DNA of 64,000 nt, taken from assembly GCF_988242995.1 (NCBI RefSeq), contig NZ_OZ547043.1; one strand, 5' to 3'. Shown here one piece after another: positions 9,564 through 15,850 of this stretch. The position numbers were made by a program, and so were the translations under genes. Positions within the stretch are counted from its first letter, which is position 1. Every line of letters starts with the position of its first letter. The notes beneath the pieces were generated by a model, which saw only the letters and a list, made by a program, of their open reading frames with translations, was not told the origin of the DNA and searched no databases.

Positions 9564-9672
9564 TAATTAGATAATCTACTAATTTTAATCAAAAAAAATA
9601 ATTATGTAAAACTAACTATATGGATTAATGTGTTCATTATCTTTAGTTGCTAAAAATTAGCAAGTTATATAT

Positions 9673-11265
9673 TTATTTACACCTATAATTTTCGGGTGAT
9701 GACATTGCCCAGGTTACTCCAGAAGATATGATGTTTGCCGGTGCCCCGGATATAATCTGATTAGATGTAAAAAATTTATTTTCCACAATACAACCGGCAG
9801 ACACATAACATTCATCAGAAATATGTGTTCCTTTTAGCAACATCACACGTGACCCAATCCAAACCCTATCCCCTATATTTATAGGCTGGCCCGGATTTAA
9901 TAAGTAGCCATTGCTATCAAGAAGGGAATGCTCGTCCTGACAACAAATCTTAACATCGCTACCTATAACGCAACCATCTCCTATTTTACAACAATTATCG
10001 CCATTCAAATAAATATCTAGCTGCTTATCAATAATGCATGAGTTTCCAATACATACTTTTCCACCGATATTATTATTCAATATTGATAAGTTATTATATT
10101 TTGAATTTCCTAAATGAACATAACCTCCACTATTTAATAAAATTGTAGAATCCTTAAAAGTGGCTCCATCTTCAATTACCACCATATTATTAACACCACT
10201 GAATTTCAACATTAAACCAGAAACAGATTGATATGTACCATCTGATACATACTCTATTTTATTTCCATATATAATTGTATTCTTATTAACTTTAAAATCT
10301 TTATACTTATGAAATAATGAATATAATTCTTTAATTTTAGATTCAGATTTTGAACATTGCAAAAGTTTAATATCACCTGTAGAAATCTTGTTTATTTTTT
10401 CAATCCCAATGGAATCTTTCCCATAAATATCATATCCAGTTGCATGATCTATATATCGTTTTACGTACTCTTCAAAGTTTATAGACTCATTATAAAATGA
10501 ATAACAATGATCGGTTTTGATAAAGTTAAGGTTCAAATGTTTTATTACACTAGGGTATAAGGGAACGTGAATATGATTTTTAGAAAAAGGATATATATCG
10601 ATATTTCTTTTTTTATTAATTCCCAAACAATCAAGAATGCTATTTGTTAACCATAAAAAATAATCGTTTGTTGGGTGATTTACTGTCACCGACATATAAT
10701 TACTGTAAATAGCATTTTTTAAATATGGTACTGAAGGTATATCAACTTTATTTAATTTTTCACGTTGGTTTAGATCATTAAATGTTTTTGTTAAATTGTC
10801 CGTTATTGTTTTTTCATCATAAAAGTCAGGATCAGAAACGATTTTTATAATGTTTTCTGTGCGAATATTTGCTAACAGCAAAGAATTTATATTTTTATCG
10901 CCGTATGGAAATATTCCTGAAGGAGATATCGAGTATTTCCTATTTGGCCTAATTACAGGATTTTGTGAGTGCTGGGGGAAATAAGCAGAAAGCCAAAAAT
11001 TAGGAATGGATATTCGAATGCAATCCGAACGTAACTTACTACAAATATGATCTGTGCAAAAAAAAGGATCAAAGGTTGACGATACATGTTGATATATAAA
11101 AAGATCAATTTTGGATAATGTATCATCATCCAAATAAGACTTATCTTTTAGATACACATCTTTAACTTTAACTAGATTGAAATAATTTATAAAATCAGTT
11201 TGTTCAAGAAAATTTTGTAGATGTGTATGCTGGCAATTCCCATAAATCATACATAGTTTTTTCAT
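9673..11265 (-). CDS. Region 2 protein with C-terminal hexapeptide-repeat (left-handed beta-helix) acyltransferase domain; putative capsule O-acetyltransferase
   Basis: 530 aa, very AT-rich codon usage; C-terminal third shows repeated [LIV]G-x-x-x-x hexapeptide units (IGDRVWIGSRVMLLKGTHISDECYVSAGCIV); N-terminal 330 aa not recognised. Confidence 0.5.
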   Translation of the reverse strand: MKKLCMIYGNCQHTHLQNFLEQTDFINYFNLVKVKDVYLKDKSYLDDDTLSKIDLFIYQHVSSTFDPFFCTDHICSKLRSDCIRISIPNFWLSAYFPQHSQNPVIRPNRKYSISPSGIFPYGDKNINSLLLANIRTENIIKIVSDPDFYDEKTITDNLTKTFNDLNQREKLNKVDIPSVPYLKNAIYSNYMSVTVNHPTNDYFLWLTNSILDCLGINKKRNIDIYPFSKNHIHVPLYPSVIKHLNLNFIKTDHCYSFYNESINFEEYVKRYIDHATGYDIYGKDSIGIEKINKISTGDIKLLQCSKSESKIKELYSLFHKYKDFKVNKNTIIYGNKIEYVSDGTYQSVSGLMLKFSGVNNMVVIEDGATFKDSTILLNSGGYVHLGNSKYNNLSILNNNIGGKVCIGNSCIIDKQLDIYLNGDNCCKIGDGCVIGSDVKICCQDEHSLLDSNGYLLNPGQPINIGDRVWIGSRVMLLKGTHISDECYVSAGCIVENKFFTSNQIISGAPANIISSGVTWAMSSPENYRCK

Positions 11266-11493
11266 AATGCACTACCAAAACATATGACTTTAATATTAGT
11301 GAAGCATCGAATATAATAAAAATTACTCAAGCCATTAAGAGTTGATATTAATTAATAACGATTGCATTTCGCTATGTAATTTATCTTATATTAATAGGAG
11401 GCATCGTTTATTGTAGATGCCTCCCATTAATGGGATTATATCACTTTATATTTCATGAAGGCTTTAGCATTTCATACAAAAACAACATTAGAA

Positions 11494-14832: not shown

Positions 14833-15069
14833 ATCAAACCTCTTAATTCTGTAATTACTTTAAATTATGACAAATAACTTTTGTGCTGAATTAGCTTTAT
14901 GGTAGTTGACAATAAAATAATTTTACATTGCAGATACATCAACACATAAAAATACTACGGGAAGAACAAAATATTGTAGTTTCAAATAATAAATTGGTGG
15001 GAATAACTCCGTCTATTAACTTCGCCATTAACATTAATTCAAATATTAATGTCATTTATTACAATTACT

Positions 15070-15765
15070 TTAAAGTTTATAACTGTTATCTTTCTCATAT
15101 TTCTTTCTAATAGAGTAAATTTCTGCAGCTAACTGGAAATCATCAACAGTATCAATATCGACCGTTGCTGTATTAGAAACATATAAATAAGGGTTTACGC
15201 CTATATGGTACTTATATGTTTCAATTGTTTCTCTTTTAAGTATAAAACAAGACCATAACACCTCATACCATGATGGTAAATTTTGTGAGACTTTATGCCA
15301 ATACCCGAAAGAATAATTTAATGGGTTCCCTGATGCATCGATTAAATGTCCTTTATATTTTTTGACAGCAACCATAGAATCAAACTCATTCCTAATTGAT
15401 TCCCATTCTTTTATCATGCAGGAGAATTCATTAAACAATGGGTTGGTCACTTGAACCCACATAATATCATCATTATCATTGCTATTTTTATTTATATCGT
15501 TAAGAATACCTCCAATTAATTCTGGTTGTTTAATCTCATTACCAGTTAATCTTTTATCTCGAAGTAAAAAGTTCACTCCTTTCTCATCACACATACGTTC
15601 AACTTCTTGAGCTTCAGATGATATATATATTGTTTCTGGTTTAATACCAGAATTAAGGAGCTGTTCTATTTTTATATCAAACAAAGACATTCCATTATAA
15701 AATGGAATTATGTTTTTCTTTGGTACGCGTGTCGAGCACGTTTGGAGTGGGATAATAACTTTCAT
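15070..15765 (-). CDS. Region 2 NeuA/KdsB-family sugar nucleotidyltransferase (CMP-sugar synthetase-like)
   Basis: 231 aa; N-terminal VIIPLQTCSTRVPKKNI resembles the IPARxGSKxIPxKN motif of acylneuraminate cytidylyltransferase-type enzymes; AT-rich. Confidence 0.55.
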   Translation of the reverse strand: MKVIIPLQTCSTRVPKKNIIPFYNGMSLFDIKIEQLLNSGIKPETIYISSEAQEVERMCDEKGVNFLLRDKRLTGNEIKQPELIGGILNDINKNSNDNDDIMWVQVTNPLFNEFSCMIKEWESIRNEFDSMVAVKKYKGHLIDASGNPLNYSFGYWHKVSQNLPSWYEVLWSCFILKRETIETYKYHIGVNPYLYVSNTATVDIDTVDDFQLAAEIYSIRKKYEKDNSYKL

Positions 15766-15850
15766 GTCTAATCCTTTTCGCTTTTTCTATTTAACTCTTA
15801 ATAAGATTAATAAATCTTTATATTCTGTTAATTGGTTATGCCAGATATTT

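Follow-up and report, generated by a model that had tools for sequence, protein, structure and literature searches.

Which K antigen does the short, AT-rich region 2 of this capsule locus specify, and how might three gene products build it? The locus lies in a 64,000-nucleotide stretch of contig NZ_OZ547043.1 (the window) that matches enteroaggregative Escherichia coli (EAEC) 042, an O44 strain that we take to be H18, at 100% identity over 6287 bp. It is an E. coli group 2 (kps) capsule locus, with kpsFEDUCS and kpsMT arranged around a variable region 2 and an ops element upstream of kpsM. Region 1 (kpsF-E-D-U-C-S, 1568–9563, plus strand) was delimited from the ORFs and from the RefSeq annotation of the 100%-identical 042 record, in which kpsF starts at 1604; its predicted roles cover export, the poly-Kdo linker and the CMP-Kdo synthetase KpsU, and its last gene, kpsS, occupies 8316–9563. 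Region 3 (15851–17294, minus strand) encodes the ABC exporter, with kpsT at 15851–16522 and kpsM at 16519–17294. The yghD/gsp genes adjoin the 042 kps locus, as they do other group 2 loci. The 2010 genome paper on 042 (PMC2808357) already reported its capsule locus, including the three genes of region 2.

The interval between kpsS and kpsT contains exactly three long minus-strand ORFs in the ORF listing, each with a RefSeq counterpart: an acetyltransferase gene (9673–11265; 530 aa; EC042_RS17290), a polymerase gene (11494–14832; 1112 aa; EC042_RS17295) and a cytidylyltransferase gene (15070–15765; 231 aa; EC042_RS17300). They are set off by spacers of 109, 228, 237 and 85 bp (17–28% GC), namely the convergent spacer from the kpsS stop to the acetyltransferase stop (9564–9672, 17%), two spacers flanking the polymerase gene (11266–11493, 28%; 14833–15069, 25%) and one between kpsT and the cytidylyltransferase gene (15766–15850, 24%). 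Region 2 as a whole (9564–15850) has a GC content of 29.1%, against 50.1% in region 1 and 49.1% in the entire window. GC3 is 22–25% in its three genes versus 39–60% in the kps genes, and N, K, I and Y make up 32–35% of the residues of its proteins versus 16–24% of those of the Kps proteins. This step in composition is far above chance and falls on gene boundaries. The same three-gene cassette also occurs in low-GC Avibacterium, Desulfovibrio sp. An276 and Succinivibrionaceae, and region 2 looks horizontally acquired. An earlier sequence-only reading of this DNA, which had described three low-GC minus-strand genes with N/K/I/Y-rich products and AT-rich spacers in the horizontally exchanged part of a group 2 locus, is borne out by these data.

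That reading had also set the cassette apart from the K1 (neu) and K5 (kfi) gene sets, and the family searches agree. Both neuDBACES and kfiABCD are absent, and Pfam and NCBIfam returned no neuB/C/S- or kfi-type family, that is, no sialic acid synthase, epimerase, polysialyltransferase or Kfi-type match; the sole resemblance is the distantly NeuA-like cytidylyltransferase. Its further proposal of a different K antigen stands insofar as the type is neither K1 nor K5, but the cassette is already known as a catalogued type with an assigned structure, included in the 2026 capsule catalogue kTYPr (PMC13171606). Based on the comparisons below, region 2 is very probably the K74-type cassette of the 042 group 2 (ABC-transporter-dependent) capsule locus, building a ribose-Kdo polymer.

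The MD5 checksum of the acetyltransferase equals that of kTYPr ORF K130_7 and the checksum of the cytidylyltransferase that of K130_9, whereas the 042 polymerase has the length of K130_8 (1112 aa) but a different MD5, placing the two at least one residue apart. The label K130, used in the InterProScan table of the catalogue, probably denotes the cluster finally named K74, since the final type list has no K130 entry and the identities are in agreement. Compared with K109, the 042 acetyltransferase, polymerase and cytidylyltransferase are 96.98, 84.9 and 97.84% identical, and the published K74-versus-K109 identities are 96.987, 85.278 and 97.845%. The K109 reference in this comparison was the '90% DNA' genome group, which carries the exact K109_7 and K109_9 proteins, and the '88%' genome group reproduces the published K95-versus-K109 values for the acetyltransferase and the polymerase. 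The span from kpsF to kpsM measures 15,691 bp in 042 and 15,693 bp in the K74 reference cluster, NZ_JAYXLI010000001.1:275556-291248. The match to the K74 reference genome (GCA_900636275) was judged from MD5 checksums, K109 identities and cluster length rather than from direct alignment; provided that K130 is K74, the region 2 ORFs of 042 match the K74 reference ORFs, as the K74 genotype demands. The K74 type strain has the serotype O44:K74:H18. For a strain of that serotype the repeat was solved in 1988 as →3)-β-Ribf-(1→2)-β-Ribf-(1→6)-β-Kdof-(2→. The O antigen of 042 is O44 (PMC2808357). With a structure published in 1988 and a cassette catalogued in kTYPr, the chemistry need not be deduced from what the three genes encode, contrary to the earlier supposition; the MD5 identities and K109 values essentially supply the match to a typed cluster with a structure that the sequence-only reading had named as evidence against itself.

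In this family the polymerase allele sets the serotype, the 042 allele is not identical to K130_8, the divergence among K74, K95 and K109 lies entirely in their mosaic polymerase alleles, and equating K130 with K74 is itself an inferential step. The cassette could on these grounds belong to a close K74 relative (K109, K95 or an untyped variant) whose Rib-Kdo polymer resembles that of K74 without being the same. We regard this as improbable, since the 042 polymerase, at 84.9% identity to the K109 group and 81.7% to that of K95, is clearly distinct from both, its distance to K109 is within 0.4% of the published K74–K109 value, the other two proteins are exact catalogue matches, and O44 is common to 042 and the K74 type strain. 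The K74, K95 and K109 sequences diverge at two junctions, which are the AT-rich spacers on either side of the polymerase gene, and the K74 and K95 polymerases are 90–95% identical in the Kdo-transferase domain and 64–84% identical in the ribosyltransferase part. This split agrees with a Kdof-(2→3)-Rib linkage common to both types and ribose linkages that differ, Rib-(1→6) plus Rib-(1→2) in K74 and Rib-(1→8) in K95. The mosaic polymerase alleles, set in otherwise near-identical cassettes, exemplify a switch of serotype through recombination inside one gene.

The cytidylyltransferase belongs to the CMP-ulosonic acid synthetase family (Pfam CTP_transf_3, PF02348, 29.5 bits, cut-off 22.6), in its NeuA/PseF branch and distinct from KpsU/KdsB. 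Foldseek searches with an AF2 model (pLDDT 91.6) recovered NeuA, CMP-Kdn and CMP-Pse synthetases at TM 0.72–0.80, including NeuA 1eyr (E 1.9e-15, TM 0.75–0.80), versus 0.60–0.70 for KdsB/KpsU. Every NCBIfam equivalog cut-off was missed by a wide margin, with PseF at 46.9 versus 205.7 bits and the KdsB models at 15–16 versus 193–255 bits, and the enzyme can be aligned with KpsU of the same locus over the first 72 aa only. It is encoded by 13 of 5,426 complete E. coli genomes, all of which carry this cassette family. The nearest solved structures being CMP-Neu5Ac, CMP-Kdn and CMP-Pse synthetases and the best NCBIfam match being PseF, the enzyme might activate a nine-carbon sugar such as sialic acid and the capsule contain a nonulosonic acid, as proposed in the 2010 genome annotation (PMC2808357). 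This is highly improbable, however, because neuB/neuC, pse and leg synthesis genes are absent from the three-gene cassette, the PseF score falls far under its equivalog cut-off, and the typed K74 and K95 polymers consist of ribose, Kdo and acetyl only. In addition, the homologues of the cytidylyltransferase have Kdo-pathway or Kdo-modifying genes as neighbours (kpsF, kdsA/kdsB, Kdo kinase) and, in the loci examined, never a nonulosonate pathway. Among E. coli K types, Kdof has been reported for K74 and K95 alone, and both fall in this cassette family.

The polymerase begins with a Kdo-transferase-like domain (aa 1–445; 13498–14832, minus strand), which shares the GT-B-like fold of the retaining β-Kdo transferases (GT99 WbbB, GT107 KpsC/KpsS, GT140 KrkA). 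In these enzymes the Gln of a QxxxD motif binds the Kdo carboxylate and the Asp is the covalent nucleophile; with KrkA D193C a covalent Kdo adduct has been trapped. The 042 domain instead places N227-F-P-S-L231 opposite Q-x-x-x-D in three independent, weak alignments (MAFFT with a Pfam Capsule_synth homologue; hhalign to E. coli KpsC, E 5.7e-4; a profile versus T. dismutans KpsC), and residues 224–250 include no Asp or Glu. The segment PGNFPSL is conserved across K74, K95, K109 and Avibacterium. At the CMP-binding HP motif, His264 is invariant in the family; the residue after it is Pro in more distant relatives, and the closest ones have Ser, Ala, His or Arg there. As aligned, this Kdo-transferase domain appears to lack the canonical Asp nucleophile, and it cannot simply be assumed to act like the characterised retaining enzymes. 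No sequence similarity to GT140 was detected: KrkA chains, whose structures were present in the structural libraries searched, gave no match with the 042 protein (E up to 1), the family profile (E up to 10) or the distant full-length homologue P0172. Word-indexed protein searches with the N-terminal domain and with the family alignment returned merely 4–6 matches, probably because low-complexity AT-rich words swamped the candidates. A scan of genome contigs with the polymerase alignment matched 111 patterns and confirmed zero relatives; a second scan used the cytidylyltransferase alignment. A polymerase architecture of Kdo-transferase plus ribosyltransferase has been shown biochemically for K13 KrkA (PMC12887879) and predicted for the K types of the K74 set (PMC13171606).

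The remainder of the polymerase is a dual-module ribofuranosyltransferase by homology to CriT and CrpP. A HAD-type, CrpP-like phosphoribosyl-phosphatase module (aa ~449–660; 12853–13488, minus strand) carries FDIFDT at 452–457 and GDNLKSD at 624–630, with weak matches to HAD families in Pfam and NCBIfam, and is followed by a CriT-like, PRPP-dependent ribofuranosyltransferase module (aa ~661–1030; 11743–12852, minus strand) delimited from the Bcs3 alignment. With phmmer, aa 451–1022 (572 aa) match Bcs3 at E 4.4e-18. Residues S734-R735-D736, S765-R766 and F872-D873-L-G-A-R-G correspond to S678/R679/D680, S707/R708 and E818 with loop 821–825 (loop 3), which are PRPP-binding in Bcs3 (PMC10299916), while Bcs3 R712 lies opposite Thr769 and is not conserved. 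A single ribosyltransferase module would have to make both ribose linkages of K74, a puzzle that weighs against this reading and has been noted for K16 as well. The C-terminal tail (aa ~1031–1112 plus stop; 11494–11742, minus strand) consists of a Pro/Lys/Ser-rich linker and then a basic stretch with the potential to fold as an amphipathic helix, and it may associate with the membrane; KrkA (PMC12887879) and Bcs3 (PMC10299916) were each studied as C-terminal truncations. A teichoic-acid-like polymer, made by a ribitol- or glycerol-phosphate cytidylyltransferase and a TagF-like polymerase, was considered and rejected, given a cytidylyltransferase of the CMP-ulosonate type and a polymerase that resembles TagF only through generic GT-B similarity.

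The third product is a putative capsule O-acetyltransferase (9673–11265, minus strand) in which a WcbI domain (aa 4–218; PF18588, 110 bits, cut-off 29.2) precedes a left-handed β-helix acetyltransferase domain (~aa 350–522; Hexapep PF00132, 27.7 bits, cut-off 27), so both domains of the WcbI/hexapeptide capsule O-acetyltransferases are present. Its PDB matches include the polysialic acid O-acetyltransferase NeuO (3jqy, E 5e-13) and OatWY (2wlc, E 5e-9). The activities of all three products, the role of the cytidylyltransferase included, are predicted from homology. In the assembly that we propose, the N-terminal polymerase domain of WbbB/KpsC/KrkA-like fold would add Kdo onto ribose, the CriT-type module would move ribose-5-phosphate from PRPP, and the CrpP-type HAD phosphatase would then strip the 5-phosphate to leave an added ribofuranose. 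Alternation of these modules on the poly-Kdo-lipid primer from KpsS/KpsC would yield the K74 repeat, which the acetyltransferase would O-acetylate, and the finished polymer would be exported by KpsMT-ED.

To our knowledge, the way in which Kdo-furanose is incorporated into a polysaccharide has yet to be demonstrated. The product of KpsU/KdsB is CMP-β-Kdo-pyranose. We tentatively suggest, as a possibility rather than an expectation, that the cassette is a dedicated and undescribed route to furanosidic Kdo, in which the NeuA-like cytidylyltransferase would take free Kdo in its furanose form and convert it to a CMP-Kdo-furanose donor, and the WbbB-like domain would transfer Kdo-furanose by direct (inverting) displacement. 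The suggestion arises because the cytidylyltransferase occurs only with this cassette family, which includes the Kdof types K74 and K95, and because the Kdo-transferase domain appears to be without the canonical Asp nucleophile. It gains support from K13, a Rib-Kdo-pyranose type whose region 2 has no cytidylyltransferase, and from the Kdo-pathway and Kdo-modifying genes beside cytidylyltransferase homologues. With its extra cytidylyltransferase and a Kdo-transferase-like domain that apparently has no canonical nucleophile, the three-gene cassette is a minimal system for studying this step, and it is this biochemistry that could be of broader importance.

An ops element, GGCGGTAG, the site where RfaH must load for read-through into region 2, lies at 17325–17335 on the minus strand, ~30 nt upstream of the kpsM start. 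The search gave this one match, and since 25 of 100 shuffled sequences also yielded one, the evidence is its position and not the count; an ops site 28 bp 5' of kpsM has been reported (PMC2808357). A scan of region 2 found 35 promoter-like sites where 44 ± 7 were expected, none above chance, and two terminator-like sites against 1.9 expected, which is consistent with read-through transcription. In the published model, region 2 is transcribed as the downstream continuation of kpsMT (PMC2808357), so that transcripts would start at the kpsM promoter and extend through kpsMT into region 2, helped by RfaH recruited at ops. No capsule had been described on 042 as of 2010 (PMC2808357) and the kpsM promoters are repressed by CRP (PMC12360894), so the locus might be intact yet silent in 042, an acquired island without a surface polymer. 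We think this unlikely: all three region 2 ORFs and every kps gene are full length, the ops element and regulatory region are conserved, kpsM promoter activity has been measured (PMC12360894), and an identical polymerase protein occurs in 445 blocks of a public assembly index, which argues for purifying selection. Strain 042 presumably expresses the polymer. The locus itself is ordinary. To the prototype enteroaggregative strain it gives a likely K type, K74, whose polymer is known, and this helps in interpreting the surface biology of 042, how the strain interacts with phage and serum, and the CRP control reported for kpsM.

Among known systems, the closest are K74 and its sister types K95, K109 and K135, which have the region 2 gene order, orientation and 1112-aa polymerase found in 042; the K74 type strain also shares its O antigen with 042, whereas the catalogue reference polymerase differs from that of 042. 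The cytidylyltransferase has the P-loop, QVT(S/N)PL and DIDT motifs in common with NeuA, PseF, KdsB and KpsU, but solved CMP-ulosonic acid synthetases are just 16–22% identical to it, and it coexists with KpsU. WbbB (GT99) and KpsC (GT107) are only 9–15% identical to the N-terminal domain, their catalytic Asp is not conserved in 042, and the Pro of their HP motif is Ser. KrkA, the Rib-Kdo polymerase of K13/K20/K23 that combines a GT140 domain with a ribosyltransferase (PMC12887879), has no detectable N-terminal similarity to the 042 polymerase; where KrkA has the Asp nucleophile and Gln of QxxxD, 042 appears to have Leu231 and Asn227. Its K13 polymer contains β-Kdo-pyranose, unlike the Kdo-furanose and two riboses of K74. 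Bcs3 of Haemophilus influenzae type b is homologous to the 042 polymerase and keeps the SRD/SR and HAD motifs, and both are multi-enzyme capsule polymerases. As its third module, however, Bcs3 has a ribitol-phosphate transferase and not a Kdo-transferase-like domain, and it makes a teichoic-acid-like phosphodiester.

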